Shown: in pieces, positions 7,090 through 63,998 of the stretch
How positions within the stretch are numbered: position 1 is the stretch's first letter
Layout of the letters: each line of letters starts with the position of its first letter
Assembly (NCBI GenBank): GCA_964501445.1
Contig: CAZCSJ010000001.1
Location: forward strand, 7,248-71,247
DNA from: an uncultured Candidatus Saccharibacteria bacterium
GTDB lineage: Bacteria; Patescibacteriota; Minisyncoccia; Sungbacterales; HO2-52-23
DNA length: 64,000 nt
Direction: 5' to 3'
Position numbers and translations under genes: made by a program
Notes under the pieces: model-generated
Told to the model about the DNA's origin: nothing
What the model saw: only the letters and a program-made list of their open reading frames with translations
The model's database searches: none

Positions 7090-7770
<681 letters not shown>

Positions 7771-7772
7771 AT

Positions 7773-7876
7773 CGCGATGCCAATATACGAATGCATACTA
7801 ATTATACTAATATAATATATGGTGAGCGTAGTCGAACCATTCGTATCATTGGTATAATTCGTATATTCGCATCGTA
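7773..7876 (-). repeat. Family-A intergenic TIR repeat, copy 1 (prfB stop to ftsE start)
   Basis: CGCGATGC(C/T)AATATACGAATGCATAC...ATTCGTATCATTGGTATAATTCGTATATTCGCATCG. Shared with 30238-30325, 42453-42552, 45255-45383 and 54034-54122. Confidence 0.9.
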
Positions 7877-8972
7877 TTAGGAGCGGAGCTCCGCTTCTAT
7901 AAACTCATCCAATTCTCCGTCCAGCACCTTATCAATCTGGGAAGTCTCCGCCCCTGTCCGGTGGTCTTTTACCATCTGATACGGGTGCATCACATACGAA
8001 CGGATCTGACTCCCCCACTCAATTGCCACTTTTTCTTGCCGGATGCCTTGGCGCTCTTTTTCCTGCTGCTGGAGCCGGAACTGATAGAGACGCGAGCGCA
8101 AAAGACCCATTGCGACTTCCCTGTTTCTCTCCTGCGAACGCTCCACCTGCGATGCGACCTGGAGTCCCGTCGGCAGATGGGTGATGCGAACCGCGGTCTC
8201 GCGCTTATTCACATTCTGTCCTCCCGGACCGGATGAGCGAAAAAAATCAATTTTCAAATCCTCGGCTGTAATCTCCACTTCTTCGGGCGCGACAAATTCG
8301 GGCATCACGTCCACCAGCGCAAACGAGGTGTGGCGGAGCGACTGCGACGAAAATGGGGAAATGCGCACGAGCCGATGCACGCCAGATTCTTTTTTCAAAT
8401 ATCCGTAGGCATACTCCCCCGCTATTGCAATCGTCGCGTTCTTCACTCCCCATCCGGAAGGACCGTTCTGTTCGCCCCAATGTTCATGAATTGTTTTGAT
8501 ACTCCATCCGCGCTGTTCCGCAAATCTCCGAAACATCCGAATGAGAATTGCCGCCCAATCCTCCGCGTCTTTCCCGCCCGCACCCGCATACATCGAGAGC
8601 ACGGCGTTTCCTTTATCATACTTCCCCGAGAGAAAGAGTTCCAACTCAATCCGATGAAGCTCTTTTTCAAGGGCAGCGACGCGCGATGCAGTCTCGGAAA
8701 CCAGTGTGTCATCCTCTTGGGCAATCCCGAGAAGCGTACGGAGATCAACGGTATCAGCATACATGCGATCCCATCGCTCTATCTCGCGTTTCAGCGCGGC
8801 GGCTTCTTTGCTTATTTCCCCCGCTCGCTCTGTATCGCTCCAGAACTCCGGACGCGCCATTTCAACCTCCATCCGCGCGACATCGTGCCGCTTTCGCTCA
8901 ATATCAAAGACGGTCCGCCAACTGGCGGATGTGAGTTTCAAGCGAATCAATTCGTTCCCGCAATTCGTTCAT
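7877..8972 (-). CDS. prfB: Peptide chain release factor 2, programmed +1 frameshift: join(8972..8907, 8905..7877)
   Basis: The main frame carries SPF and GGQ (SGPGGQNVNK) motifs. Upstream, frame 0 runs from ATG at 8972 as MNELRERIDSLETHIRQLADRL, then CTT TGA T (TGA at 8906-8904). A +1 shift continues DIERKRHD.. in the listed ORF frame. Confidence 0.9.
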
Positions 8973-10214: not shown

Positions 10215-10275
10215 AAATGAGAAGTAAGAATTAAGGACGATACGACTTTTCCTTGATTCCTGCTTCTTGATTCTA

Positions 10276-12476: not shown

Positions 12477-13808
12477 TCATCTGCGGGAATTGATGGTGAG
12501 GTTTGGATGCGCTTCCAGTTTCTTCCAGGGCTTTCCGCCAGCTGGCGGATTGCCTGTGAAGTATGCCGCGAGTGCGATCATGAGGGCGTTGTCGCCGGTC
12601 AACGATGAATTAGGAATTAAGAAGTATGAATTATGGACTTCTTTTCTTAGTGCTTCCCGGAGTTTTTGTTGTAGCAGATGGTTTGCGGCAACTCCGCCGC
12701 CGAGGAGCACGGTTTTGGCTTTGTATTCTTTTACCGCTCTGACAGTTTTTTTCACGAGTACATCTACAACCGCGTCTTGAAATTCTTTTGCGATCGCAGG
12801 GCGCAAGCGGCGTATGTCTGCGGGCTTCATCTCACGGAGCATATAGAGTACTGCGGTTTTGAGCCCCGAAAAGGAAAAATCGTAATCGTGTGAATGGAGC
12901 ATGGGTCGCGGGAGTATCACTTTATAATTTTTGTATTCCCTCGACTCTGCTCGGGAAATATTTCCTGAGCTTGTCGAAGAACTATCTTTTATACCGCGCG
13001 CTATACGCGCGATCTCCGGTCCTCCAGGGTATGGCAGTCCCAAAAGCCGCGCGACTTTATCGAACGCCTCCCCTGCCGCATCGTCCCGCGTCTCGCCGAT
13101 TATTTTGAATTTTCCGTGTCCGCGCATAAGTACGAGTTCTGTGTGCCCGCCGGATACCAGAAGCGCGAGGGCGGGGAATTTGATAGGTTTTAGGGGGTAG
13201 GTTTTAGGGGGTAGGGACTTTGGTATGAGAGCGGAATATAAATGACCTGCCATGTGGTCGGTTGGAAGCAACGGCACGTTCCAAAGTGCAGAAAGCGCGC
13301 GGGCAAAATTCACCCCGACCCAAAGCGCGGGCGCAAGTCCGGGGCCGTGCGTGACCGCGATTGCGTCTATCTTTGGCGCAGGCAGCGGTGCGATATGTTT
13401 TTTGAAGCGAAACAGGAGTTCGGGTTCACGTTCGAGGATCAAATTAAGGTTGCCCCTCGACTTCGCTCGGGGAATAATAATTCCTGAGCCTGTCGAAGGA
13501 TTACTTTTCAGTTTATGCAGTTTTCCTTCCTTCAGTGCTTTGAGTAAAAGTGGCACGAGATTTTTCTGGTGTTCCCGTTTTGCGAGATTGGGCACCACCC
13601 CACCGAATTTTTGGTGTATTTTCACCTGCGAGGAGATGAGGTTTGCTAATACGCGGATTTTCGCAGATGATAACGCAGATTTACGCAGATTCGTATCCGC
13701 GCGGATCCGCGAGGGTTGTTTAATCGGTGTTAATCCGCGGCCATTGCTGAATTCCGCAATGGCAATTGCGGTTTCATCACAGCTGGTCTCTATCGCGAGA
13801 ATGCGCAT
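12477..13808 (-). CDS. tsaD: tRNA N6-adenosine threonylcarbamoyltransferase TsaD (about 100 aa longer than usual because of repeat-derived inserts)
   Basis: 443 aa. MRILAIETSCDET.., GGVVPNLAKREH, SGGHTEL and LGGGVAANHLL are Kae1/TsaD hallmarks. Confidence 0.9.
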   Translation of the reverse strand: MRILAIETSCDETAIAIAEFSNGRGLTPIKQPSRIRADTNLRKSALSSAKIRVLANLISSQVKIHQKFGGVVPNLAKREHQKNLVPLLLKALKEGKLHKLKSNPSTGSGIIIPRAKSRGNLNLILEREPELLFRFKKHIAPLPAPKIDAIAVTHGPGLAPALWVGVNFARALSALWNVPLLPTDHMAGHLYSALIPKSLPPKTYPLKPIKFPALALLVSGGHTELVLMRGHGKFKIIGETRDDAAGEAFDKVARLLGLPYPGGPEIARIARGIKDSSSTSSGNISRAESREYKNYKVILPRPMLHSHDYDFSFSGLKTAVLYMLREMKPADIRRLRPAIAKEFQDAVVDVLVKKTVRAVKEYKAKTVLLGGGVAANHLLQQKLREALRKEVHNSYFLIPNSSLTGDNALMIALAAYFTGNPPAGGKPWKKLEAHPNLTINSRR

Positions 13809-14318: not shown

Positions 14319-14336
14319 AACAAATAGGTTTTATTG

Positions 14337-14389
14337 CCCGAGCTTGTCGAAGGCGTACATTTAATGAAGCCCTTCGACTTCGCTCAGGG
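14337..14389. repeat. Family-C palindromic element, non-coding copy (thyA-folA spacer)
   Basis: CCCGAGCTTGTCGAAGG-(loop)-CCTTCGACTTCGCTCAGGG. The same arms occur inside valS, tsaD and recG. Confidence 0.85.
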
Positions 14390-14400
14390 AGTCTTATTGG

Positions 14401-16534: not shown

Positions 16535-16921
16535 TTAATGAGTTGTAGAGTTTTTGTCAAAGTTTATACTTACGAATCGAATATATCCATGTAGTGCTTT
16601 ACGTAACTCTGTATATCCTTCTGAAATGCTGTTTGCACGATCTATTGGAAGAAAACCTTTCTCTGCGCAGCGAAGAATATTACTTCGCGTTTCTTCTCCT
16701 TCCGTCATCGCAATATTTCGCAGGATGTAGCATTTTTCTTTTGCAGATTTTTTGTAATAAGACTCCGCGATGTTATTAGTTACTGATGATGACGAGCGTT
16801 TGAGTTGGTCTACACTACGATATCTCTCGTCATGTGGAAAATCTGCTGTGGCGACATGGATTTTCATTTCCAAGTTTTTTGCCATTTGATAGATTTTGAG
16901 ATTTTCGAGTCCCGTAGCCAC
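16535..16921 (-). CDS. Four-helix-bundle protein (23S rRNA intervening-sequence protein family)
   Basis: 128 aa. The family-typical pattern is IYQ.A..L....H......P..ERY...DQL.RSS.SV..NIAE. AT-rich and flanked by about 40-bp inverted repeats at 16513-16550 and 16921-16960. Confidence 0.8.
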   Translation of the reverse strand: MATGLENLKIYQMAKNLEMKIHVATADFPHDERYRSVDQLKRSSSSVTNNIAESYYKKSAKEKCYILRNIAMTEGEETRSNILRCAEKGFLPIDRANSISEGYTELRKALHGYIRFVSINFDKNSTTH

Positions 16922-18004: not shown

Positions 18005-20062
<2,058 letters not shown>

Positions 20063-21445: not shown

Positions 21446-21451
21446 CAAGAA

Positions 21452-21525
21452 GTCATTCTGAGCGAAGTCCCGCTAAGCGGGCGAGTGAAGAATCTCCGGA
21501 GATCCTTCACTGCGTTCAGGATGAC
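21452..21525. repeat. Family-E palindromic element (GTCATYCTGAGCGAAG type)
   Basis: GTCATTCTGAGCGAAGT...CACTGCGTTCAGGATGAC with nested hairpins. A related copy lies at 35355-35421. Confidence 0.8.
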
Positions 21526-21599
21526 GCACTGATGTCAGATATGAATTCCAGTGTAACGTGGCATTTCCCTGATTACAACTCTCGTGTCCGAACATCAAA

Positions 21600-30231: not shown

Positions 30232-30237
30232 ACTTGA

Positions 30238-30325
30238 CGCGATGCTAATATACGAATGCATACTAATCATACTAATACTTCCTATCCATTCGTATCATTA
30301 GTATTATTCGTATATTCGCATCGTA
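30238..30325 (-). repeat. Family-A intergenic TIR repeat, copy 2 (gatC stop to gatA start)
   Basis: GCGATGCTAATATACGAATGCATAC...CATTCGTATCATTAGTATTATTCGTATATTCGCATCG. Confidence 0.9.
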
Positions 30326-30619
30326 TTATTCAAACACCGCTTTTACTTTCACATATCCCTTTTCGCGCTCGGGCGCTGCGGAAAGCAGACGCTCCGGATT
30401 TCCTTCAAGCGATGTATCGATCGCATCGTCCTCTCGCATGACGTTTTTTAACTGCGTGCCGCCGGTCATGGGAAGAACATTCTCCGTATCCAATTCCCCC
30501 AACTGCTCCACAAACGACAAAATCGCCGAGAGTTCTTTCTCAAACTTCTCTTTTTCCGTGTCGGTCAGGGCGATTCGCGCGAGATGCGCGATATGTGCGA
30601 CGTCGTTTTTTGAAATCAT
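30326..30619 (-). CDS. gatC: Glutamyl/aspartyl-tRNA amidotransferase subunit C
   Basis: 97 aa. VAHIAHLARI.L...E......L..IL.FVE.L is GatC-typical. The ATGA overlaps the stop of the ligase gene. Confidence 0.9.
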   Translation of the reverse strand: MISKNDVAHIAHLARIALTDTEKEKFEKELSAILSFVEQLGELDTENVLPMTGGTQLKNVMREDDAIDTSLEGNPERLLSAAPEREKGYVKVKAVFE

Positions 30620-32394: not shown

Positions 32395-32418
32395 CCCCGT
32401 ATATCAACCTCGACTGCG

Positions 32419-32450
32419 CTCCGCCTCCGCCAGCTGGCGGAGGCGGAGCG
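32419..32450. repeat. Perfect 32-bp palindrome (family-D core CCGCCAGCTGGCGG), likely a terminator between the pilin block and the ligase gene
   Basis: GCTCCGCCTCCGCCAGCTGGCGGAGGCGGAGC, flanked by family-C-like arms. Confidence 0.9.
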
Positions 32451-33118: not shown

Positions 33119-33877
33119 TTAAAATTCCCTTAGCCGCGGGACAATGCTCGTCTGAAGCGACAGGGACACAGGAGACGAGAGCCGCGGATCTGCGGACTGG
33201 ACTTGAAGGACGATCGTCGCGATCGGCTGGCCATCGGAAGAACCCCGCGTCGCGCCATGGAGAACGAAACGGAGATTTTTCACTCTCACCTCATCGCTCG
33301 TGAGCGGCTGGGTGTATGCCGTCTCCCCGCAGTTTTGGTGATTTACACTGTCACTCATCCGCATGATGGTGAGATTTTCCGGCCGCGAATCCCAGTAGTA
33401 GGTAATCTGCGTTCCCTCGGAGTTGGTAAACGTGAGTTCGTGGATCGGATCAAACCCGGAACCCACGCAGTTTAACCCAAAGGAGGTATTTTGGTACCCA
33501 AAACCCGTGCGGAGCTCTTTTGTAATCAACTCCAAACTGAAACGGACATTATCTTGGATCGCCTGGGTTTCGGCCGCGCGGACCTGCGCATTCATGATAT
33601 CAATCGTGACTCCGATCGCGCTCACCACGATCACCAAAAAAATCCCCATGGAGGTAACCATCTCAAGCAAGGTAAACCCGTTTCGCCCCCCACCCCACGA
33701 TGAGATTCCTATGCGTTTTTGCGAAATTGTGGAGGCGTGGCGCACAAATAACCGAAGCGAGGAGGATGGGAAACAGGGGCGCGAGTCCCGCGGGAAGCGG
33801 GACGAGCGAACACTGAGGGGTTCCCGCCGACGAGCGAGGATTATTTGTCCACGCCGAAACGTTGAAGCAAAACGCAT
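33119..33877 (-). CDS. Type IV pilin-like pseudopilin with a long identical N-terminal module
   Basis: G|FTLLEMVTSMGIFLVIVV prepilin motif. The ATG at 33877 lies 7 nt after the upstream stop. The first about 70 codons are identical to the next gene. Confidence 0.75.
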   Translation of the reverse strand: MRFASTFRRGQIILARRREPLSVRSSRFPRDSRPCFPSSSLRLFVRHASTISQKRIGISSWGGGRNGFTLLEMVTSMGIFLVIVVSAIGVTIDIMNAQVRAAETQAIQDNVRFSLELITKELRTGFGYQNTSFGLNCVGSGFDPIHELTFTNSEGTQITYYWDSRPENLTIMRMSDSVNHQNCGETAYTQPLTSDEVRVKNLRFVLHGATRGSSDGQPIATIVLQVQSADPRLSSPVSLSLQTSIVPRLREF

Positions 33878-33879
33878 AG
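33663..33879 (-). repeat. Duplicated pseudopilin 5-prime module, copy 1
   Basis: 33663-33863 is identical base for base to 34456-34656 (201 bp, compared by eye). Similarity continues through the ATG. Confidence 0.95.
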
Positions 33880-33884
33880 GAATC

Positions 33885-34670
33885 TCATCTCCAATTATAT
33901 AATCGCTCCCGCAACTCGACCTCTTTTCGCACTCCGCGCTCATCCCACCATACTCGTGAGATAACATCCATTTGGTCGTTCTTGTTGATGTTATTCGCTT
34001 GATCTTCATTATCGGGCGGCGATCTCACGGTGACGGTGCGGCGAAAGATCGTGGGCTCCGCACCGCCGTATCCCACAAGACCGGTTGCTGGATCCCGCGA
34101 GAGATTTTGATTCCCCACGCCGGCCTGGGCAGGAGAAAACAACGGCATGGGAATTACGGGGTTTCCCCCGCACGTGATTCCTTCCGGTCCGATCTGGGTG
34201 GCATCCACCTCCCATGTGCCGTCCATGGATCCGCTCCCCGAGGGATGACGCTCCCAATCCCATTTTGGCTTGCCGTTCAATTGATCGCACAGCACATTAT
34301 TTTCACGCACGAGCCGCACGATCTCAATTCCCTCTTGCGCGAGGTGCAGGGCGGCAAGACGGTTTTTGGCGGAAGGGAAAGAAGAAATACTGCGCGTGAC
34401 CACCGCAACCGGCCCCACGACTGCCGCGAGAATCAGAGAGAGGGCGATAATGGTTTCAAGCAAGGTAAACCCGTTTCGCCCCCCACCCCACGATGAGATT
34501 CCTATGCGTTTTTGCGAAATTGTGGAGGCGTGGCGCACAAATAACCGAAGCGAGGAGGATGGGAAACAGGGGCGCGAGTCCCGCGGGAAGCGGGACGAGC
34601 GAACACTGAGGGGTTCCCGCCGACGAGCGAGGATTATTTGTCCACGCCGAAACGTTTGAGTAAAACGCAT
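33885..34670 (-). CDS. Type IV pilin-like pseudopilin with a long identical N-terminal module
   Basis: G|FTLLETIIALSLILAAVV prepilin motif. The ATG at 34670 lies 7 nt after the upstream stop. Confidence 0.75.
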   Translation of the reverse strand: MRFTQTFRRGQIILARRREPLSVRSSRFPRDSRPCFPSSSLRLFVRHASTISQKRIGISSWGGGRNGFTLLETIIALSLILAAVVGPVAVVTRSISSFPSAKNRLAALHLAQEGIEIVRLVRENNVLCDQLNGKPKWDWERHPSGSGSMDGTWEVDATQIGPEGITCGGNPVIPMPLFSPAQAGVGNQNLSRDPATGLVGYGGAEPTIFRRTVTVRSPPDNEDQANNINKNDQMDVISRVWWDERGVRKEVELRERLYNWR

Positions 34671-34672
34671 AG
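34456..34672 (-). repeat. Duplicated pseudopilin 5-prime module, copy 2
   Basis: See copy 1. Confidence 0.95.
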
Positions 34673-35334: not shown

Positions 35335-35354
35335 ACACCTATCTACGTTTCCAT

Positions 35355-35421
35355 GTCATCCTGAGGGCGAAGCCCGAAGGATCTTGAGATTCTTCTCCGC
35401 CAACTGGCGGATCAGAATGAC
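35355..35421. repeat. Family-E palindromic element with a nested family-D-like core
   Basis: GTCATCCTGAGGGCGAAG...CTCCGCCAACTGGCGGATCAGAATGAC. Confidence 0.8.
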
Positions 35422-38668: not shown

Positions 38669-38788
38669 TGGTACGAGGGACTAGGGGTTAGGTTTTAGGT
38701 TGTAGGGGGTAAGGGGTCCTGCTAATGATTACCGGTAACTAATTATCAATTTATTAATCCCTAGCCCCTAATCCCTAAAACCTAGAAC
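38669..38788. repeat. G-rich TTAGGG-like repeats in inverted arrangement around an AT-rich core (pilT-pilC spacer)
   Basis: Left arm CTAGGGGTTAGGTTTTAGGTTGTAGGGGGTAAGGGG. Right arm CCCTAGCCCCTAATCCCTAAAACCTAGAACCTAG. Confidence 0.8.
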
Positions 38789-39856: not shown

Positions 39857-39893
39857 AGAACGAATTGAGGTTTCAGGTTTTAGGAATTGGGGC

Positions 39894-40277
39894 TTACGAT
39901 ATCCCTAATACCCTTTTCACTTTCTCCACCACTTCATTTGGCGTGAAGTGGGCTTTGATGATGTAGTCGTCCGCCCCAAGCTTCATGCCCCGATCCACAT
40001 CTTCCTTCTGTCCGAGGTTTGTCAAAAGTATGACTTTGACATCTCGGAGCGCCGGGTCCTCCTTCAACGTCCGGAGCACCTCAAAGCCGTCCATCGCGGG
40101 CAGCACAATATCAAGAAGCATGACGCGCGGAGAGGTCTCTTTCATTTTCTTCAACGCATCTTTCCCGTTTTTTGCAATGGCAATGGCAAACCCCTTCTCC
40201 TGAAACTTCAGAACATACATATCAAGAATAAACGGGTCGTCGTCAACTATAAGAATGGTGGGTTTGTCTTTTACCAT
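39894..40277 (-). CDS. Stand-alone response-regulator receiver (CheY/PilH-like)
   Basis: 127 aa. ILIVDDD.., phospho-acceptor LLDIVLPAMDG, and K at LGADDYIIK. Confidence 0.9.
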   Translation of the reverse strand: MVKDKPTILIVDDDPFILDMYVLKFQEKGFAIAIAKNGKDALKKMKETSPRVMLLDIVLPAMDGFEVLRTLKEDPALRDVKVILLTNLGQKEDVDRGMKLGADDYIIKAHFTPNEVVEKVKRVLGIS

Positions 40278-42437: not shown

Positions 42438-42452
42438 ATCGTGCTTCGCACA

Positions 42453-42552
42453 TCGCGATGCTAATATACTAATGCATACCAATTATACGAATACCGTATC
42501 ATTTGTATCATTGGCATAATTCGTATATTCGCATCGTATTATATTGGCATCG
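42453..42552 (-). repeat. Family-A intergenic TIR repeat, copy 3 (upstream of pilB)
   Basis: CGCGATGCTAATATACTAATGCATACC...ATTTGTATCATTGGCATAATTCGTATATTCGCATCG. Confidence 0.9.
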
Positions 42553-42849
42553 TTAAAACGGTGTAAACGGATTCTGGCGTCCATGCTCTCCCTCCCCGCC
42601 CGCTAAGGATTCCTGAAATGTGGGCGCAGTTTCAAGCGCACGGAAAAGCGGGTCTTGGAAAACCGAGGTGTCAAGGCGAAGATTTTTGAGGCGCCGGAGC
42701 GTTCCCAAACGATCCTGGAGCGCTTTTGGACCATTAGCAATCGGCGTTTCAGTGGGGAGGGCTGGCGCGGATCCAAAATAGGCGTACCACACATATCCTA
42801 TTGCGGCGAGTGCCAGTATCAGAATAAGTACGAGAATGGTTTGTCTCAT
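42553..42849 (-). CDS. Small membrane-anchored protein of the pilus locus (PilP position)
   Basis: 98 aa with a single N-terminal TM. It follows pilO with a 1-nt gap. No family assigned. Confidence 0.6.
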   Translation of the reverse strand: MRQTILVLILILALAAIGYVWYAYFGSAPALPTETPIANGPKALQDRLGTLRRLKNLRLDTSVFQDPLFRALETAPTFQESLAGGEGEHGRQNPFTPF

Positions 42850-42850
42850 C

Positions 42851-43438
42851 CTATTGGTAGTAAATTACGCTTTTGACGCTAAACTCTATGGGGTCGCCCG
42901 GACGCGGAGGCGCAATGAATGTCAAATCTTTCACGGTCACGACGCGAGAGAATCGTTCAAGTTCTGCAAGGAAGTTTTTGAACGCATCGTAAGAACCGGA
43001 GACCGTGAAAGAAACCGTAACCTCTTTGATCCCGCCCGTTTTCGCAACGCCCGAAGGGGCGGCCGAGGGCCGCGGCTGTCCGGACTTGGACCCTTCAGAA
43101 TCTTTGGCACCGCTGCCAAGCGTCGGAACATCGGTACGCCGCAGGAGAAGACCGTTTCGGAGCACCATTTTTTCAAGATCCACGAGAAACTCCGCGCTCT
43201 GGGGCCCCTTGGGGAGCGCCTGCGCAACTCGGTCAAGATCTTCCTTCCGGATTTTGCTTATGACACTCCCGACGCTGTTGAGGTTGCCTATGAGTTCATC
43301 CACTTCTCCCGAGAGCGCGTGGAGGTCTTCGGTTTGCTTGCGAAGCGAGAGAAACTCGTTCCAGGCCGGCGCAAAATATAAGACCCCGACACCGACAATT
43401 GCCGCAAGAAGAAGTAATGGGAGGATAAGACGAGCCAT
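42851..43438 (-). CDS. pilO: Type IV pilus biogenesis protein PilO-like
   Basis: 195 aa with N-terminal TM, coiled coil and a C-terminal ferredoxin-like part (FKNFLAELERFSRVVTVKDL). Position after pilM/pilN. Confidence 0.75.
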   Translation of the reverse strand: MARLILPLLLLAAIVGVGVLYFAPAWNEFLSLRKQTEDLHALSGEVDELIGNLNSVGSVISKIRKEDLDRVAQALPKGPQSAEFLVDLEKMVLRNGLLLRRTDVPTLGSGAKDSEGSKSGQPRPSAAPSGVAKTGGIKEVTVSFTVSGSYDAFKNFLAELERFSRVVTVKDLTFIAPPRPGDPIEFSVKSVIYYQ

Positions 43439-43447
43439 TGTGAGGTT

Positions 43448-44023
43448 TTAGGGGTTAGGGGTTAGGGGGGAAGAAAGAGAGGCGCGGAAAAATGAGGGGG
43501 TAAAAATGATCGTGGTCTGGAATCTAAGAATGTTATTTTGGTCAAGCGCCAAATTGCCAAATTCCACCCGCTCTATGCGGGGATCTCCCTCAAGGAGCGC
43601 GATTTGCCGCGCGAGTGTCGCATAGCCCGCTGCCTCGCCTGACATATCAAGGCGCCGGGTATCCGCGCGGAAATTAAAATTGAGGAAACGGACCCGAGGG
43701 TTGGTCGTGCTCTCAAGGAACGAAAAAATTGGGGTGAGGAAAAGGCGCTGCGAGAGAATAGTCCGCATGTCGCGGAGACGGCTATCCAGGAGAAACACCT
43801 GATTTATCGCTTCCGGCCGGATTTCTGCCTTGCTCTCAATCTCTGCGGTGAGTTCCTCAAGAGCTGAAGCCTGATACCGGTTGAGCACAAAAAGTCCGCC
43901 GTAGGCAGCGCCTTCCAGCACCAAAAGCGCAACGCCCGCATAGATAAGCAGGGGTACGGTTGAACGCACCGTGACGTCAATTTTGGAACCCATTGTTGCT
44001 TTTGATGAAAGGAGGTCGGCCAT
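43448..44023 (-). CDS. pilN: Type IV pilus biogenesis protein PilN-like
   Basis: I place the start at the ATG at 44023 (MADLLSS..). Single TM plus coiled coil. The C-terminal PLTPNP is encoded by the CCCCTAA repeat. Confidence 0.7.
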   Translation of the reverse strand: MADLLSSKATMGSKIDVTVRSTVPLLIYAGVALLVLEGAAYGGLFVLNRYQASALEELTAEIESKAEIRPEAINQVFLLDSRLRDMRTILSQRLFLTPIFSFLESTTNPRVRFLNFNFRADTRRLDMSGEAAGYATLARQIALLEGDPRIERVEFGNLALDQNNILRFQTTIIFTPSFFRASLSSPLTPNP

Positions 44024-44138: not shown

Positions 44139-45251
44139 TTACCTTGTGGTGATCTCATGGAGTGCTAATCCCACGGCGGTGGAAAAGTTCGGGCCGATGT
44201 CGCGCAGCATCGGCTGGAGAAATGCGGGTGCTACCACGCGCGCAAAGGGATTCCCGCGCGTCACCTCTATGCCAAATCGGGTGCTCGTGTAATCAATAAG
44301 GCCTTTCATATGCGATCCTCCGCCGGTCAAATTTATTTTCTGGATCTTTCGGTCGGTACGGCGATTGTAGAGCGCTACAATCCGTTCAATTTCCGCGAGG
44401 AGCGAATCGGTAAGGGGCGTTAAGACCGACGTAATCTCTTTTTGCTCCACCCGTTCCTCAATGCCGATGTCCTGCTTTATCGCCTCCGCGCGCTCCTGAT
44501 TGATACCCATGCCCTGCGCTAACGCCCGCGTGAGCTCCTCTGAACCGCGACTGATGTTATGCGACATCCGGAGTTTGCCGCGGTCAACGACCGCAACGGT
44601 GGTCGTATAGTGCCCCATATTGAGAATCAGGGTCGGGGTGGTATCCATGCCCATAAGCGACCGGACAATGCTGAACGTTTCCACTTCCAGCGCCACAAGT
44701 GTTATGTCGAGCATCTGGCTTATCCGTTTGAACTTTTCAATGACTTCTTTTGGCACTGCCACAAGCAGAACCGTAACCCCCTGATCGGTCTCCTCAATCA
44801 CCTCCCAGTCAAGGGTCACTTCTGCGATCGGTATGGGAACGTACTTTCGCGCCTCAAAAGGGATCGCCTGCGAAATTTCCTTTATCGCGATCTTCGGGAA
44901 CGGGATCGGGGTAACAAAACTTGAGGTTGCGGGTACGCCGATAACCGCGTCTTTCGCAGTCACATTGGACTCGCGGAGGATATCCCGGAGCAGATCCGCA
45001 ATATCAGCATCGGTGTAGCGGAGAAACCCCCCTCCGCCAGCTGGCAGACCCCCTTCACTTGTTTTGAGATACTTTCCCGAAAGCAATTCGCCGTACGTTT
45101 CAAGGATTGCCCGCTCTTTCTCGTAGTGTAATTGTACCACTTTCGCAGAATGGATTCCAACATCAATACCCACCGTGCGGGACGGCTTGCCTTTGAGAAA
45201 GTCAAGCGAGAATCCGGGAAGACGAAGTTTTTTAAGAAAAGGAATGTCCAC
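44139..45251 (-). CDS. pilM: Type IV pilus assembly protein PilM (actin-like ATPase)
   Basis: 370 aa. VGIDVGIHSAKVVQL and LTGGGSHMKGL are actin-fold phosphate motifs. GTG start. Confidence 0.9.
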   Translation of the reverse strand: MDIPFLKKLRLPGFSLDFLKGKPSRTVGIDVGIHSAKVVQLHYEKERAILETYGELLSGKYLKTSEGGLPAGGGGFLRYTDADIADLLRDILRESNVTAKDAVIGVPATSSFVTPIPFPKIAIKEISQAIPFEARKYVPIPIAEVTLDWEVIEETDQGVTVLLVAVPKEVIEKFKRISQMLDITLVALEVETFSIVRSLMGMDTTPTLILNMGHYTTTVAVVDRGKLRMSHNISRGSEELTRALAQGMGINQERAEAIKQDIGIEERVEQKEITSVLTPLTDSLLAEIERIVALYNRRTDRKIQKINLTGGGSHMKGLIDYTSTRFGIEVTRGNPFARVVAPAFLQPMLRDIGPNFSTAVGLALHEITTR

Positions 45252-45254
45252 GGA

Positions 45255-45383
45255 GCGCGATACGAATTACCGCGATGCTAATATACGAATGCTCCGCCAG
45301 CTGGCGGACTAATTATACGAATATATATGGTGAGCGCAGTCGAACCATTCGTATCATTAGTATAATTCGCATATTCGCATCGG
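45255..45383. repeat. Family-A repeat, copy 4, in the divergent pilM/comF spacer, with a nested family-D palindrome
   Basis: CGCGATGCTAATATACGAATG-[CTCCGCCAGCTGGCGGAC]-TAATTATACG...CATTCGTATCATTAGTATAATTCGCATATTCGCATCG. Confidence 0.9.
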
Positions 45384-45423
45384 TTACATTCGTATAGTAC
45401 CATTTTTAAGGTAAAATAGGGGG

Positions 45424-53413: not shown

Positions 53414-54031
53414 TTATTTCCCATTCGTTTTTCGCTTGATGATTTCATCAATGATGCCGTACTTTTTTGCGTCCTCGGCGGTCATGTACTTGTCGCGCTC
53501 GGTGTCGTCATGCACTTGCTCCAGCGTTCTGCCGCTGTGTTTTGCGAGGATTTGGTTGAGTCGTTCTTTGAGTTGTAAGATATGCTTTGCAGAAATTTCA
53601 ATCTCCGTTGCCTGCCCCTCAATGCCGCCTGCCATCACTTGGTGGATCATCACCTCCGCGTTCTGGAGCGCGAAGCGTTTGCCTTTTGCTCCTGCGGCAA
53701 GCAGCAACGCCGCGCCCGATGCCGCCATGCCGACACAAATGGTTGAGACATCGGGCTTCACATACTGCATGGTGTCGTAGATCGCCAAAGTCGCCGGAAC
53801 CGAACCGCCCGGGGAATTGACATAGAGCTTGATGTCTTTTTTTTCATCCTCCGATTCAAGGAAAAGGAGCTGGGCAATAATGGCGTTTGCCACCGGGTCC
53901 ACGATCGGCCCGCCAAGGAAAATAATCCGCTCTTTTAAGAGCCGCGAGTAGATGTCGTATGCCCGCTCGCCAAACTGCGATTTTTCAATGACGGTCGGAA
54001 TGAGGTATTGGTTGTAGGTTTCGTTATTCAT
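53414..54031 (-). CDS. clpP: ATP-dependent Clp protease proteolytic subunit
   Basis: 205 aa. [14 protein letters not shown] (catalytic Ser), IHQ (His), and DTERD. Confidence 0.97.
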
Positions 54032-54033
54032 GT

Positions 54034-54122
54034 ATCGCGATGCTAATATACTAATGCATACTAATTATACTAATACTTCCTATCCATTCGTATCATTGGT
54101 ATAATTCGTATATTCGCATCGA
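54034..54122 (-). repeat. Family-A intergenic TIR repeat, copy 5 (tig stop to clpP start)
   Basis: TCGCGATGCTAATATACTAATGCATAC...CATTCGTATCATTGGTATAATTCGTATATTCGCATCG. Confidence 0.9.
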
Positions 54123-54123
54123 T

Positions 54124-55425
54124 TTAGAGTTGTTCAAGAAACTCAAACACTTTCTCGTTTGTCAACACGTCTTTAGTATATGCGCGGAGCGCCTCGGGGT
54201 CAAAATCCTTTTTGGCGTTTTCCGCAGAGCGGTAGCGCGCAAGGATTTCGTTTGCCCGCGTCTCTATCTCCTGGGCGGCGGGCTCAATTTTCTCAACCCC
54301 GCCTATTTCGTGGAGTACGAGCGCGATCCGCACGCGTTTCTGGGCGTCTTTCTCCCAGTCGGTTTTGAGGTCTTCCGGCGTTTTCTTTATGTGCGCGAGA
54401 TACTCCTCCCACTTCATCCCCATATCCCCAATGCTCGCGCGGAGCTCGTCTGTCATCTTTTCAATCTCCCGATCAATAAGGATCCTGGGCACCTCCATGG
54501 CGGAAGCGTCGGCAATTGCCTCAAGGGTCAAAGCGCGAATCCGCTGGATTTCTTTTTGTTCTTTTTCCTGCGCGATCCCCTCGGCAACGTTTTTTTTCAA
54601 CGCCGCAACCGAGTCAAAATTCCCGAGGCCTTTTGCGAATTCATCGGTCATTTCAGGCATAGACCGCTCCTGCACCAGATTCATCTTTACGGTGAAGTCA
54701 AGCGATTTCTCCGCATATCCCTTGTCGTGCCAGTCCTTGGGGGCTTGGAGCGAAAATGATTTCTCTTCTCCCGCCTTCATGCCCTCAATCGCATCTTCAA
54801 AACCCGGGAGAAAACGGCCCTTGCCAAGAATAAAAAGGTGGTTTCTGGACTCGCCACCTTCAATTTTGACCCCTCCGTGGCGCGTGTCAAAATCAATGGT
54901 AACCGCGTCGCCCGGAGCCGCGGCGCGGTTGACCGTCACAAGGACTGAGCGCGACTCGCGGATCCACTCAAGGGTTTTTTCCGTTTCCTCATCGCTCACC
55001 GAAACCGCCTGTTTTCCTTTGCCGAGGCGCCGCGCAATCGCTTTGTAGTCAGGCAGTGTTACCTTTGGGAAAAGCGCTGTCTTCACTTTGAATTCAAGGT
55101 CGCTTCCGGGTGCGAGCTTTGTTATGGCGATTTCCGGACGTCCGATCGGCGGGGTTTTGGAAAGCTCACCCGACACAAGTTCCTCCATGAGTTTCGGGTA
55201 GGCCGCGCGTACTGCGAGCTCGGCGCCGCGCTCATAGAGCGCGAATTCGCCCACGCGGTCTTTTACGACGTCGTAGGGCGCTTTGCCCTTGCGAAATCCT
55301 TCAATTACCGTTTCTTCGGAGATCACAATCGCCGCGCGCTTCACGTGCGGTTCAAATTCGGCGTGAGGGACGATAACAGTAATCTCCGCTTCCGAGTGCG
55401 GGAGGAGCGTTACGGAATGATTCAT
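54124..55425 (-). CDS. tig: Trigger factor
   Basis: 433 aa. N-terminal ribosome-binding GFRKGKAP, a central FKBP-like domain and a C-terminal helical domain. Upstream of clpP. Confidence 0.93.
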   Translation of the reverse strand: MNHSVTLLPHSEAEITVIVPHAEFEPHVKRAAIVISEETVIEGFRKGKAPYDVVKDRVGEFALYERGAELAVRAAYPKLMEELVSGELSKTPPIGRPEIAITKLAPGSDLEFKVKTALFPKVTLPDYKAIARRLGKGKQAVSVSDEETEKTLEWIRESRSVLVTVNRAAAPGDAVTIDFDTRHGGVKIEGGESRNHLFILGKGRFLPGFEDAIEGMKAGEEKSFSLQAPKDWHDKGYAEKSLDFTVKMNLVQERSMPEMTDEFAKGLGNFDSVAALKKNVAEGIAQEKEQKEIQRIRALTLEAIADASAMEVPRILIDREIEKMTDELRASIGDMGMKWEEYLAHIKKTPEDLKTDWEKDAQKRVRIALVLHEIGGVEKIEPAAQEIETRANEILARYRSAENAKKDFDPEALRAYTKDVLTNEKVFEFLEQL

Positions 55426-55496
55426 ACGAGAATTATGAATTACGAGTTATGAATTATGGTTTCGTATTGTAATTTTCTTAATTCGTAATTCATACT

Positions 55497-56780
55497 TCAT
55501 AATTCTGGCTCTTTGTCTTTACTCTCTTCGGTGCCTGTAGATTCGGCTACCGCCTCCTCCTCTTCAGACCCTGCCGGAGTTTCCGGTGCGTTGGAACGTA
55601 CATCAATCTTCCAACCGGTAAGGCGCGCGGCAAGGCGCACATTCTGCCCGCCCTTGCCGATCGCAAGCGAGAGCTGGTCTTCGGCAACAATGGCGCGCGC
55701 CTCGCGGCGCTCCTCATTGAGTTCCACATCAAGGACTTTTGCGGGCGAAAGGGCGTGCGACACAAACTCTGCCGCATCTTCGGACCATTCAATAATATCT
55801 ATCTTCTCGCCTCCGAGTTCGTTTATGACGGTGGAGACCCGAATGCCTTTCTGCCCCACGAGCGAACCCACGGGATCCACGCCCTGTTCGTTTGACGCGG
55901 CCGCGACCTTGGCGCGCGACCCGGGTTCGCGCGCGATCGCTTTTATCTCAACCGCCCCGGACGGTATTTCCGGAACTTCAAGCTCAAAGAGTTTTTTCAA
56001 AAGCAGGGGGTGGGAGCGCGAGAGCACGATCCCGGGCCCTCTCGGATTTTTCTCAACCGCCAAAATGAGGGTTTTGATACGGCTGCCGATATGCAGGCGT
56101 TCGTACGAATTCTGCTCTTCGGGAGGGAGGGCGGCAACCGTCCGTCCGATATCCACATAGACCATGCGCCCTTCAATCCGCTGGATGATGCCCGACACCA
56201 GCTCCCCCTCACGGTTTTTATAGTCGTCATAAATCGTCTCGCGTTCAATTTCGCGGATGCGTTGTATAATCACCTGTTTTGCGGTCTGCGCCGCAATCCG
56301 GCCGAAGTCGTCGTGCGACTGGAGCGGAAACTCAAGCTCATCTCCGGTCTTCACCTCGGGGGTGATCGCGCGCGCCTCTTCAATCATGATGTGTTTCTCC
56401 GGATTGAAACGGACTTTCTTCTCACCCGGCTCCTCGCTTTCCTCTTCCCGCTCTCCTTTTTTCCCTTTTTCTTTTTCCTTCTCTTCCTGTTCTTCCGGCG
56501 CAATGCCCGCAAGCCGCCGCGCGCGCTCCTCTTCCTCTGCCTGCACCTCTTCTTCGGATTTAATCATCGTGTCATCCACGACGATTTTAATTTGGCGCAT
56601 TTCCAACGCCCCGGTTTTCGGATCCATCTTCGCACGGATAAGCTGGCCGCGTTTGCCATAGTCACGTTTGTAGGCGGCAGCTAACGCCATCTCTATGGTC
56701 TCAAAAATCTTTTCCTGCGGGATTCCTTTCTCGTCGGCAATCTGCTGGATTGCCTGTGTAAATGTTTTGAGGTCAATCAT
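55497..56780 (-). CDS. nusA: Transcription termination/antitermination factor NusA (with a Glu/Lys-rich insert)
   Basis: 427 aa with NusA N-domain, S1 domain and two KH domains (GQKGIRV.., GKGGQNVRLA). Confidence 0.93.
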   Translation of the reverse strand: MIDLKTFTQAIQQIADEKGIPQEKIFETIEMALAAAYKRDYGKRGQLIRAKMDPKTGALEMRQIKIVVDDTMIKSEEEVQAEEEERARRLAGIAPEEQEEKEKEKGKKGEREEESEEPGEKKVRFNPEKHIMIEEARAITPEVKTGDELEFPLQSHDDFGRIAAQTAKQVIIQRIREIERETIYDDYKNREGELVSGIIQRIEGRMVYVDIGRTVAALPPEEQNSYERLHIGSRIKTLILAVEKNPRGPGIVLSRSHPLLLKKLFELEVPEIPSGAVEIKAIAREPGSRAKVAAASNEQGVDPVGSLVGQKGIRVSTVINELGGEKIDIIEWSEDAAEFVSHALSPAKVLDVELNEERREARAIVAEDQLSLAIGKGGQNVRLAARLTGWKIDVRSNAPETPAGSEEEEAVAESTGTEESKDKEPEL

Positions 56781-56894: not shown

Positions 56895-57572
56895 CTATGC
56901 GTTTGCGAGCTTGAGCACCACCACCTCTGTTTTTCCTTCCGCTTCCACGTCTTTTTTCTTCAACGTAAGCTTTTCCTGCGGCTCCTCCGCCTCCGCCAGC
57001 TGGCGGATTTGGCGGATCCCCGCGCCCATCGCCTTCAAAAACTCATCGGCATTCGCGATGTTGATTGTGAGCCCGGGGATTTTATAGTGCATGGGAATGA
57101 CGAAGCGCGGTTCAATCTGTTTTGTAACCCGGGCCGCTGTCTCGCCGTCAATGGTGTAGACCCCGCCGACCGGCGTCAACAGCACGTGAACCTCGCCTAT
57201 TTCTTCAAGCGTTTCATCACGGAGTTTTTCTTCTCCAAAATCTCCGAGGTGGAGCAGGCGAATTCCCTCCATCTCAATCACATACACGGTGTTCATCCCC
57301 CGCTCCCTGCCCTGCGACTGGTCATGGAAGGTGGAAATCCCATGGACATACACCCCTTTCACTTCGTACTCTCCCGGACCGCGAATCAAAAAGGGGTCGC
57401 CGGCCAGCGCCTCAAGATTGGCGTGGTCATAGTGGCCGTGGGTTGCGAGCGCCACATCCGCGCGAAAACGCGGCGGGGTCAACCCCACCTCCTTTGCATA
57501 CGGGTCAATCACGACCACGAGATCGCCTGACTGGATTTTAAAACACGCGTGCCCGTACCATTGGATAACCAT
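56895..57572 (-). CDS. MBL-fold metallo-hydrolase (UPF0173-like)
   Basis: I place the start at the ATG at 57572 (MVIQWYGHACFKIQ..). HGHYDH motif. The ORF-track N-terminal extension is encoded by a 9-mer tandem repeat. Confidence 0.85.
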   Translation of the reverse strand: MVIQWYGHACFKIQSGDLVVVIDPYAKEVGLTPPRFRADVALATHGHYDHANLEALAGDPFLIRGPGEYEVKGVYVHGISTFHDQSQGRERGMNTVYVIEMEGIRLLHLGDFGEEKLRDETLEEIGEVHVLLTPVGGVYTIDGETAARVTKQIEPRFVIPMHYKIPGLTINIANADEFLKAMGAGIRQIRQLAEAEEPQEKLTLKKKDVEAEGKTEVVVLKLANA

Positions 57573-61871: not shown

Positions 61872-63998
61872 ATGCAGATTACCCTTGCGACACCGCTCTC
61901 TTCTATTCCCAAAATCAGTGCGCGCATTCGGCCGGCGCTCGCGCGTCTCGGGATTCTCACCGTCCGCGATCTCCTTTTTCATTTTCCCTCGCGCTATGAC
62001 GATTTTTCGAATATGCGTCAGATCCGGAGCGTGGGGCTAAATGAAACCGTAACAGTGCAGGGAGTGATTGAACGCGTGAGCGCGCGGCGCACCGCAAAAA
62101 AGCACATGGCGTTGACCGAAGCCGTAATTCGCGACGGCTCCGGAGCGATACGCGCGATTTGGTTCAATCAGCCGTTTCTCGCGCGAACTTTAAAAGAGGG
62201 GCAGAGGGTAAGTATTTCCGGGAAAACCGCCCGCGGGGCGCAGGGCATCTATTTTCAGAACCCCGCCTACGAGCGCGCAAAACGAAATCTCCATACTGCG
62301 GGGCTTGTCGCGGTCTATCCGGAGAGTAAGGGCATCTCATCGCGCTGGCTCCGATTTCTTACGAAATCCTTCATGCCGCTCGCATCCTCCTTTCCCGATC
62401 CGCTTCCCTTAGAAACCCTTCGCAGGTATCAACTCCCCGGAGCGCGCGATGCCATCCGAATGATCCACTTCCCCAAGACCCTTGAAGAGGCAGAACGCGC
62501 AAAAAAGAGATTCCAGTTTGAGAAACTGCTTTTGATCCGGCTCCGGGCGCTCCGAGAGAAACACCTCTTGAAGAAAGAGGCGGCTCCGAGAATTCCCCTT
62601 GACCTTCCGCTCGTGAAATCATTCGTGGCATCGCTCCCGTTTGCCCTCACCGATGCCCAGCGCCGTTCCCTTTGGGAAATTCTGCAAGACCTTTCAAAGT
62701 CCCAGCCAATGAATCGGCTGCTTGAAGGCGATGTGGGATCAGGGAAAACCGTGGTGGCCGCCGCTGCCGCACTCTTGGTATCGCGCGCAGGGTTTCAGAC
62801 CGCGTTTCTTGCGCCAACGGAAATCTTGGCGCACCAGCATTTCGCAACGTTAGCGCAGGTACTCGCGCCATTTTCAATTTCCATGGGACTTCTCACAGGG
62901 ACTCACAAACGCTCCATGCCTTCCGATGATGTGGTGGTGGGCACCCATGCGCTCCTTCAAAAAGATGTACGCTTTGATCGCCTTGGATTTGTGGTGGTGG
63001 ATGAACAGCACCGGTTTGGCGTGAGGCAGCGCGCGGCTTTACTTCAGAAGCAAGAAGAAATCCTTCGACAAGCTCAGGATATATCTCCCGAGCAGAGTCG
63101 AGGGATACCCAAGAGTCAAGGAAGTATGTTGCTTCCGCATTTTTTATCAATGTCCGCGACCCCCATTCCGCGCACACTTGCGCTCACCCTCTATGGCGAT
63201 CTTGACCTCTCGCTCCTTGACGAGATGCCGCAGTCCCGGAAAAAAATTATCACCTCTATCATTCCGCCGTCCAAACGCGAAGACGCATATCATTTCATCC
63301 GTAAAGAGGTAGCCGCGGGACGACAAGTATTTGTCATCTGTCCGCGGATAGACGCCGAATCAGGAATCAGGAATCAGGAATCAGGAAAAGGACAGCAGCA
63401 ACTTTTGCTTTCAGATGTGAAGGCGGTGAAGGAAGAGTATAAAAAGCTTTCCGAGGAGATTTTTCCCGATCTCCGCGTGGGAATGCTCCACGGCAAAATG
63501 AAGGCAAAAGAAAAAGCGGATGCTATGGAACGATTTCGCAAAGGTGAAGCGGATATTCTCGTCTCTACCTCTGTGGTGGAAGTGGGCGTGGATGTGCCAA
63601 ACGCTACCCTCATGATGATCGAGGGCGCGGAGCGGTTTGGGCTCGCCACTCTCCACCAATTCCGAGGGCGCGTGGGCAGAGGGAGCGAACAATCATACTG
63701 CCTCCTTTTTCCTACTGAAGATGGTGTGGGCGCACAGCGCCTCCGTGCGCTTATGGAGGCAAACACCGGCTTTGAACTCGCGGAAAAGGACTTAGAGCTG
63801 CGCGGCGCAGGGGATCTCTTGGGCGTGCGGCAGTGGGGTGTGGAGAGCGATCTTATAGACGCGCTTCGGGATCAGGCGCTCGTACGGATAGTGAACCGTG
63901 AAGCAACGCTCCTCATGGCGCGCGACCCCTCGCTTGCCTCGTGTCCCCTCCTGAAACAGGCGTTGGAGAGCGCAGAAAAGCAGATACATCTTGAATGA
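61872..63998 (+). CDS. recG: ATP-dependent DNA helicase RecG
   Basis: 708 aa. OB wedge domain, helicase motifs GDVGSGKT, DEQHRFG, SATPIPRT and QFRGRVGRG. Contains repeat-derived in-frame inserts. Confidence 0.95.
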   Translation: MQITLATPLSSIPKISARIRPALARLGILTVRDLLFHFPSRYDDFSNMRQIRSVGLNETVTVQGVIERVSARRTAKKHMALTEAVIRDGSGAIRAIWFNQPFLARTLKEGQRVSISGKTARGAQGIYFQNPAYERAKRNLHTAGLVAVYPESKGISSRWLRFLTKSFMPLASSFPDPLPLETLRRYQLPGARDAIRMIHFPKTLEEAERAKKRFQFEKLLLIRLRALREKHLLKKEAAPRIPLDLPLVKSFVASLPFALTDAQRRSLWEILQDLSKSQPMNRLLEGDVGSGKTVVAAAAALLVSRAGFQTAFLAPTEILAHQHFATLAQVLAPFSISMGLLTGTHKRSMPSDDVVVGTHALLQKDVRFDRLGFVVVDEQHRFGVRQRAALLQKQEEILRQAQDISPEQSRGIPKSQGSMLLPHFLSMSATPIPRTLALTLYGDLDLSLLDEMPQSRKKIITSIIPPSKREDAYHFIRKEVAAGRQVFVICPRIDAESGIRNQESGKGQQQLLLSDVKAVKEEYKKLSEEIFPDLRVGMLHGKMKAKEKADAMERFRKGEADILVSTSVVEVGVDVPNATLMMIEGAERFGLATLHQFRGRVGRGSEQSYCLLFPTEDGVGAQRLRALMEANTGFELAEKDLELRGAGDLLGVRQWGVESDLIDALRDQALVRIVNREATLLMARDPSLASCPLLKQALESAEKQIHLE

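Follow-up and report, generated by a model that had tools for sequence, protein, structure and literature searches.

Rickettsia palindromic elements (RPE) are dispersed palindromes of about 100-150 bp which are confined to Rickettsia, have no transposase of their own, stand in many unrelated genes in a frame that they keep open as well as in intergenic DNA, and are considered compatible with the fold and the function of the host protein (Ogata et al. 2000, 2002, in PMC10969869). In this article we describe a similar situation in a 64-kb stretch of contig CAZCSJ010000001.1 (called the window below), which derives from an uncultured, ultra-small bacterium of a Parcubacteria/Sungbacteria-like lineage and where the gene tsaD carries in-frame segments of dispersed repeat families, among them two palindromes named family C and family D. 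The likeness to RPE lies in behaviour: the window palindromes are dispersed, have no transposase of their own in view, and are found in frame in unrelated housekeeping genes (family C twice in tsaD and also in valS and recG, family D in tsaD and pilM) and between genes. They differ from RPE in measuring 16-51 nt, in lacking a conserved peptide of 30-50 aa and in having a host outside the Rickettsiales; furthermore a single gene of 1.3 kb holds 4-6 segments from several families, and the same TsaD sites are hit repeatedly across the whole clade. The window elements can be said, by analogy, to work like RPE without being RPE, and no kinship of sequence is expected.

A further parallel is offered by cyanobacteria, where heptanucleotide short tandemly repeated repetitive (STRR) sequences and small dispersed repeats (SDR) were reportedly described by Mazel in 1990 and by Elhai in 2008. 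SDR are about 20-27 nt long, are nested in other repeats, occur in hairpins and lie occasionally inside conserved genes. The window resembles both in its very small nested dispersed repeats and in its dispersed and over-represented 7-nt tandem arrays; since the phylum and the unit sequences are different, the likeness is one of form only. The arrays of the window also occur in the coding DNA of a core enzyme and are homogenised in a lineage-specific manner at orthologous positions, which to our knowledge has not been reported for STRR.

Repetitive extragenic palindromic (REP) sequences with their associated tyrosine transposases (RAYT) are GC-rich imperfect palindromes of only 20-40 bp present in many copies at gene ends, extragenic by definition (PMC3733652), and bacterial miniature inverted-repeat transposable elements (MITE) sometimes give in-frame fusions, as do the Coxiella QMITE, ERIC and BOX (PMC5896051, PMC10969869). 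The short palindromes in many copies are common to these and to the window, and so is the occasional in-frame position of MITE. Family C nevertheless differs from REP in having no GTAG/CGTC head and in its location, four of its five copies being genic, with no Y1_Tnp among the approximately 60 open reading frames (ORFs) of the window; compared to MITE (usually 100-400 bp), terminal inverted repeats with a duplicated target site are missing, the aligned copies show no flanking direct repeats, the size does not exceed 51 nt, and no insertion sequence (IS) was found in the window. Our literature search gave no paper in which MITE, REP or in-frame repeats are connected with Patescibacteria or Parcubacteria. 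The present case stands out by the density, the occurrence in the candidate phyla radiation (CPR), the clade-wide hot spots and the apparent concerted evolution of heptamers in a core gene; the principle was already known from Rickettsia.

An intact tsaD with segments of dispersed repeats

The tsaD gene of the window is an uninterrupted ORF of 443 aa (ORF listing). It matches the profile PF00814 (TsaD/Kae1/Qri7) over the whole domain (256 bits, cut-off 24.8, E=4.8e-76), the match being divided by the inserts into two stretches, and its best matches among solved structures are the TsaD proteins of Salmonella and E. coli (337 aa, E about 1e-63). The alignment with E. coli TsaD consists of three blocks, leaving out residues 22-51 and 98-141 of the query, about 9 aa near residue 200, about 19 aa at 271-289 and a few C-terminal residues. 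H185, H189 and D406 align to H111, H115 and D300 of E. coli, which we take to be the metal-binding His-x3-His pair and Asp, and the presumably nucleotide-binding motifs S219-T223 (SGGHT) and G370-N376 (GGGVAAN) are present and invariant across the 120 Sungbacteria-like TsaD relatives that served for comparison. Altogether 55 of the 55 columns invariant in these relatives are retained by the query, including H185, H189 and D406. The AlphaFold2 (AF2) model, computed from the alignment of the 120 relatives, has a mean predicted local distance difference test (pLDDT) score of 89 and a predicted template-modelling score of 0.89; its core superposes on solved TsaD in the two-lobe ASKHA fold, and Foldseek gave TM scores of 0.88-0.90 normalised to the targets 3zet, 4ydu and 4wq5 (E. 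coli and Salmonella TsaD). Since the loci of relatives keep the gene order folA-tsaD-valS-prsW-hsp20 wholly or partly, the window tsaD is the syntenic orthologue and not a decayed extra copy. No second TsaD/Kae1, and neither TsaB nor TsaE, was found among the approximately 60 ORFs of the window. A pseudogene with an intact copy elsewhere, which the first-pass annotation of this DNA had named as a way in which its reading could fail, is very improbable. The best explanation, predicted from sequence and model, is a working threonylcarbamoyltransferase gene for the tRNA modification t6A.

The interpretation given in that annotation is supported in part. Its central claim, an essential enzyme gene broken in frame by mobile-looking DNA, is borne out, the segments belonging to dispersed repeat families of the same genome; the length of 443 aa and all five repeat segments were found again, the latter within 1-3 nt (the site 5 palindrome is one base off). 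It had also taken 340 aa as the normal length of TsaD, which is a wrong yardstick for this lineage because TsaD in the 120 relatives measures 368-473 aa (median 405). The query is 106 residues longer than the E. coli protein, and about 26 of the 106 form a clade-conserved, non-repeat-like module (LILEREPELLxxFKKxIxPL), so that the attribution of the extra length to repeat DNA is valid in part only. When site lengths were measured between conserved anchor residues and compared with the clade median (Table 1), segments 1, 4 and 5 came out, in this sequence comparison, as clear and real insertions relative to the clade; the other two of the five insertions that had been counted do not have this status, the linker at site 2 being variable in all relatives and segment 3 being shared by the clade.

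The segment at site 1 contains eight copies of ATC[CT]GCG/CGC[AG]GAT, the sole such cluster in the window (0.005 expected), and codes for ..RIRADTNLRKSALSSAKIRV. Its hairpin reaches -32.8 kcal/mol (z -2.4, fold versus shuffles), and the extra residues have an occupancy of 0-0.1 in the relatives and a pLDDT of 48-56. A shorter form of the element (NGRG...R[TI][DN]AD..IRV) is present in the closest relatives, and the query has enlarged it. In recG, a CCGCGGATAGACGC stretch (63341-63354) was considered as another copy and was rejected, as it codes for the native RecG motif CPRIDAES. The family C copy at site 4 folds with -21.5 kcal/mol (z -5.5), its extra residues having an occupancy of 0.1-0.3 and a pLDDT of 67-72, and that at site 2 with -23.7 kcal/mol (z -4.5; pLDDT 56-75); the family D palindrome at site 5 corresponds in the alignment of relatives to a 4-residue gap at zero occupancy.

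Site 3 is of a different nature. Here GGTTTTAGGGGGTAG is present in two exact tandem copies, at 13186 and 13200 (13186-13214), its family having ten matches in the window against 1.3 expected, and the coding-strand array shows no RNA structure when its fold is compared with shuffles. The encoded segment (xxxYxLxxIKFP) is occupied in about 80% of the relatives, thus the objection that extra segments might align to conserved TsaD is partly justified for segment 3 and does not hold for segments 1, 4 and 5. Segment 3 is not an inserted mobile element; it is a local tandem array of 7 nt/21 nt which continues into conserved codons. A sixth repeat-like stretch, absent from the earlier list and called 'site 6' here, consists of (GAATTAT)-type DNA (14 matches in the window against 1.8 expected) that is 87-92% identical over 26-30 nt to the intergenic arrays at 55430 and 56788. 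The region has a length of 21 in 116 of the 120 relatives, and because of this fixed length its interpretation as a true insertion was rejected.

In the AF2 model the inserts have a pLDDT of 48-75, compared to more than 90 for the core, and they fall between secondary-structure elements.

Dispersal of the palindromic families

The family C arm CCCTCGACTTCGCTCGGG is found in five copies in the window (0.03 expected), namely twice in tsaD, in valS, in recG and once between genes. The element of about 48 nt has ends that read ATCCTTCGAC...GTCGAGGGAT, and its copies fold into hairpins with energies between -21 and -25 kcal/mol (z from -4.5 to -6.2). Over 43 nt the site 4 copy shares 95% identity with the one in recG, and it is 91% identical to that in valS; this copy-to-copy identity of 91-95% stands against about 60% for the nearest orthologous protein. 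In valS, family C together with a second, nested palindrome makes a 25-aa insert that is missing in three orthologues. No Rfam family was matched by the in-gene hairpins, and their interpretation as terminators was rejected, as no terminator-like site exists on the coding strand.

Family D (TCCGCCAGCTGGCGGA) is present in seven copies in the window against 0.03 expected. A family D palindrome also lies in a member of an intergenic hairpin repeat of about 100 nt, and in the alignment of the five copies of this repeat the filled site GAAT[GCTCCGCCAGCTG]GCGGACTAAT can be compared with the empty site GAAT-GCATACTAAT of the other four; two of the five copies share a family-C-like loop insert. Mobility is supported by the filled and empty family D pair, by the nested valS palindrome and by the identity of the copies. 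Family C is without stops in five of the six frames and family D in all six, and all genic copies keep the frame: four in tsaD, one in valS, two in recG and one in pilM. Family C is read in two different frames among its genic copies.

Table 1. Coordinates of repeat segments and related features in the window. Lengths in tsaD are given between conserved anchor residues (query, median of the clade, difference).
Feature	Position	Strand	Query (aa)	Clade median (aa)	Difference (aa)	Remarks
tsaD CDS, intact	12477-13808	-				PF00814 and PDB TsaD matches, AF2 model, synteny
Site 1, GCGGAT/GCAGAT-type repeat hairpin	13652-13739	-	33	11	+22	encodes aa 24-53; aa 25-46 (13671-13736) extra relative to clade
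Site 2, family C palindrome, 51 nt	13450-13500	-	30	27 (range 18-70)	+3	within linker variable in all relatives
Site 3, heptamer/14-nt tandem array	13173-13224	-	18	19	-1	codes LPPKTYP/LKPIKFP; clade-shared segment
Site 4, family C palindrome	12937-12982	-	28	14	+14	aa 273-291 (12936-12992) extra relative to clade
Site 5, family D 16-nt palindrome TCCGCCAGCTGGCGGA	12534-12549	-	15	11	+4	net +4 aa (..PPAGG..)
'Site 6', (GAATTAT)-type heptamer-periodic DNA	12601-12636	-				tsaD aa 391-403, codes HNSYFLIPNSS
valS, family C and nested second palindrome TTCGGCCATGAGCTCAGTGCCGAA	10622-10700	-				in frame; nested hairpins -32.2 kcal/mol
recG, family C copy	63060-63108	+				in frame, other reading frame (ILRQAQDISPEQSRGIP), between DEQH and SATPIPRT helicase motifs
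recG, (GAATCAG)4 heptamer array	63354-63391	+				in frame, ~250 nt downstream of family C copy
Intergenic family C copy, arms permuted	14332-14398	.				between folA and thyA
pilM, family D variant	45033-45048	-				in frame, read as GLPAGG; frame as at tsaD site 5
Family D in intergenic hairpin repeat	45290-45308	.				filled versus empty site
Intergenic hairpin repeat, ~100 nt	7767-7880, 30232-30329, 42448-42553, 45265-45398, 54030-54126					TACNAAT-like units (CGCGATGCTAATATACGAATGCATACTAAT...)
Extended perfect palindrome, 34 nt, CGCTCCGCCTCCGCCAGCTGGCGGAGGCGGAGCG	32417-32450, 56985-57007					family D core, with CAGCTG site
Classic '..GTCATCCTGAGCGAAG..GAAGGATC..' palindromes	21449-21530, 35354-35420					in spacers
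Hairpins of array and inverted complement	55426-55496, 38669-38788, 10215-10275, 39864-39895, 43437-43478					intergenic or gene-end; other unit per locus (GAATTAT; TAGGnnn)
23S rRNA intervening-sequence protein gene (PF05635)	16535-16921					between nusG-side genes and tmk
Direct duplication, 230 nt, 96% identity, 793 nt apart	33650-33879, 34443-34672					amid ORFs without Pfam match

The arm of family C also matches, base for base, the palindromic motif '..CCTTCGACTTCGCTCAGGATGAC..', which elsewhere is presumably mostly read as intergenic hairpins or spurious ORFs; in the window, by comparison, it is embedded in frame in essential genes. We know of no published name or explanation for the spread of this motif, and no paper with the sequence of family C or of the classic motif in a relevant context was found in our literature search. 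A scan with the arm over 185,579 species genomes (596 Gb) gave at least 120 loci from many phyla, with Acidobacteriota, Bacteroidota, Chloroflexota, Spirochaetota and CPR among the loci listed, and returned no close relative of the present genome. This number is near the chance level (estimated at about 280 in 596 Gb) and the count alone is no evidence; the bases that follow the arm are strongly non-random (ATGAC in 19 of 136, GCAGG in 14 of 136). It is due to these conserved flanks, and not to the locus count, that the motif can be regarded as real, and by its sequence the family C arm belongs to a widely distributed palindromic motif which is not private to this genome.

Hot spots and heptamer arrays across the clade

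The nearest TsaD proteins among 5.8 billion protein clusters come from metagenome-assembled genomes of Candidatus Sungbacteria and other Parcubacteria. Compared with the clade core, 77 of the 120 relatives (64%) show one or more inserts of at least 6 aa, and the inserts cluster at query positions around 21-24, 102-116, 200, 277, 328 and 418 and at both termini. Identical 5-mers are common to different insert sites across the relatives: the peptide R[TI][DN]A[DE]..LRKS was met in six proteins at site 1, in seven at site 4 and in one protein elsewhere, NFQF[SP]IS/KFQIP is found at sites 2, 3 or 4 of relatives, and a palindrome coding for HPERSEG...SFGLRPQDD is at site 3 in two proteins. At the level of DNA, the closest relative (locus L121) has at site 2 the array (AGAACTA)n, of which further copies lie within and behind valS, and an element of about 80 nt starting with (AATTTCC)4 which is found at both site 3 and site 4 as well as in valS. 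In another relative (L122, P0009 gene), site 2 holds (AATTTCC)n and site 3 a (GGAATGT)n hairpin, with no second copy of these inserts within 21 kb. Judged by these alignments, the repeat-bearing tsaD is the rule in this clade and not the exception; the tolerance of inserts, which the first-pass annotation had called unusual, is so in comparison with textbook bacteria and not within the clade.

Other kinds of in-frame insertion also occur in core genes of the same clade: in the relatives' loci L121 (12021-15224) and L124 (1-887), valS codes for 1067 aa with His_Phos_1 between the halves of the synthetase core, and gyrB has an intein. In the window itself, nusA (55497-56780), where NusA_N is matched in two stretches, and gyrB (18005-20056), where HATPase_c covers 140 aa on 106 profile positions, may hold further in-frame inserts.

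Arrays of period 7 form 16 regions in the window against 0.6 expected, and those of period 14 form ten against 0.5, the periods 4, 5, 8, 10 and 11 being at background. Many of the spacers form hairpins in which one arm is an array and the other its inverted complement. At site 3 the orthologous DNA of three genomes shares the 7-nt register with lineage-specific units, which are CCTACCC/CCTAAAA twice in the query, CCTACAA/CCTACCA twice in L124, and ACTATAA and similar in L121, and all three arrays run into the conserved ..ATCAAATTYCC codons (IKFP). The peptide here is a 7-aa tandem copy of the conserved xxIKFP, e.g. LQTINYK/LQTIKFP; in the relatives the segment is at least 12 aa and most often 19 aa long, and the gap of 7 aa equals three heptamers.

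'Site 6' is likewise heptamer-periodic with lineage-specific units in five of the seven genes inspected. In 119 proteins, with no correction for phylogeny, identity of residues i and i+7 was counted 32 times against 9.0 expected from shuffles, and 54 times against 17.4 at a second pair, e.g. PNT..PNT, PHVA..SHVA and PISD..PISD; among the offsets 5 to 9 only 7 shows the excess. From the sequences, the pattern looks like slippage or conversion that homogenises a 3x7-nt repeat, the length of which is held by selection.

Origin and meaning of the segments

We propose, with a probability of roughly 0.7, that small hairpin repeats and slippage-prone heptamer arrays enter tolerant loops of tsaD and are translated as passenger peptides. 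Translation of the tsaD mRNA would run on through short repetitive stretches that stem from the genome itself. Family C (about 48 nt), family D (16 nt) and the GCGGAT-type hairpin would be dispersed, insertion-prone palindromes with no transposase of their own in view, and because such elements are open in nearly all frames, an insertion of length 3n would leave the gene intact. Slippage or conversion might lengthen, shorten and homogenise the 7-nt arrays, with three units giving 21 nt or 7 aa, and in this manner short coding stretches could be built or rewritten at site 3 and 'site 6'. Selection would remove all events outside a few permissive positions of the TsaD fold, which are likely the beta2-beta3 turn, the linker after helix 1, the loop before FPALALLVSGGH, the loop before LPRPM and the C-terminal tail; since only these few are permissive, the same hot spots would be filled independently in different lineages. 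The encoded peptides would be hydrophilic, poorly ordered loops, probably neutral passengers.

It should be emphasized that several points weigh against this proposal. Segment 1 has no second copy in the window by blastn (word size 7) or by a scan for motif clusters. Neither target-site duplications nor terminal tags were seen in the aligned family C copies, and no transposase, RAYT, Y1_Tnp or IS among the approximately 60 window ORFs; since nothing of this kind was seen in 64 kb, the word mobile refers to dispersal, nesting and one comparison of a filled with an empty site, and the manner of movement assumed above is conjectural. At 58-62% identity, the nearest TsaD is too distant for dating any insertion in tsaD or for observing it as a presence/absence polymorphism. 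That the segments are translated is suggested by the preservation of the frame only, and the exposure of the inserts in surface loops by the indel positions and the low pLDDT of the model. The gene calls elsewhere in the window are simple longest-ORF calls, and the excess of identity at 'site 6' is of the uncorrected kind.

Alternatively, the hairpins might be kept for a task at the level of RNA or DNA, such as mRNA stabilisation or processing, translational pausing, or sites for protein binding or the nucleoid, the peptides being a by-product. The segments of family C, family D and site 1 indeed form stable hairpins well beyond shuffles, the families also make intergenic hairpins at gene ends, the occurrence of the family C arm in a cross-phylum motif with conserved flanks suggests constraint beyond one genome, and heptamer periodicity persists in coding DNA across lineages. 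We consider this unlikely nevertheless, as the type and position of the elements differ between orthologues, the coding strand has no U-tail or terminator-like site and there is no Rfam match, the site 3 array is without any structure, and the positions follow protein loops and not a regular spacing on the mRNA. It is quite improbable, too, that the inserts are adaptive loops of CPR TsaD, recruited from repeats and kept by selection for contacts with TsaB, TsaE, tRNA or a host. Insertions of the RPE type have been proposed as raw material of protein evolution (PMC10969869), and the Y.L..IKFP segment of site 3 and 'site 6' are fixed in the clade, the latter with constant length in 116 of 120 relatives; the inserts at sites 1, 2, 4 and 5, however, have no conserved sequence across relatives and a low pLDDT, orthologues hold unrelated repeat peptides in their place, and the same elements are found in the unrelated valS, recG and pilM and in intergenic DNA.

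Intervening sequences in rRNA genes are a known trait of CPR bacteria. Such sequences, the window gene for a 23S intervening-sequence protein and the strong hairpins inside the coding region could speak for excision from the mRNA or ribosome bypass, i.e. for inserts that do not reach the protein, as would also be the case with a pseudogene or an assembly chimera. All these are very improbable: at least eight genic copies are in frame and free of stops, which excised sequence would not need to be, and because all genic copies keep the frame, with two frames of family C in use, the inserts are apparently read through and not excised. Independent assemblies of relatives show the same pattern, which speaks against an artefact, and the retention of all invariant residues at a conserved syntenic place speaks against a pseudogene.

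Passenger peptides translated from the genome's own repeats would have practical consequences. Translated repeats, and not new domains, may account in part for the unusual length of CPR proteins and for their interrupted domain hits, a point relevant for annotation, for coverage thresholds of hidden Markov models, for structure prediction and for phylogenomic alignments of CPR lineages. For protein engineering, the clade shows, as a map drawn by nature, which positions of the universal and essential enzyme TsaD tolerate insertions. The findings also raise the question of how elements as small as 16-50 nt are spread.

A more far-reaching and rather doubtful idea is that Sungbacteria-like CPR possess an active, lineage-wide process that writes and homogenises 7-nt arrays and tiny palindromes in the coding DNA of core genes, for which a dedicated enzyme or an unusual slippage mode of replication or repair may be candidates. 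If so, housekeeping proteins would carry fast-turnover, genome-specific surface loops at fixed hot spots, even core segments of fixed length such as 'site 6' of TsaD would be encoded by concertedly evolving 3x7-nt repeats, and much of the well-known divergence and surplus length of CPR proteins would go back to one mechanistic source. With the passenger-peptide proposal itself, selfish DNA in protein genes would be extended from Rickettsia to an unrelated radiation of reduced genomes, at a much higher density.

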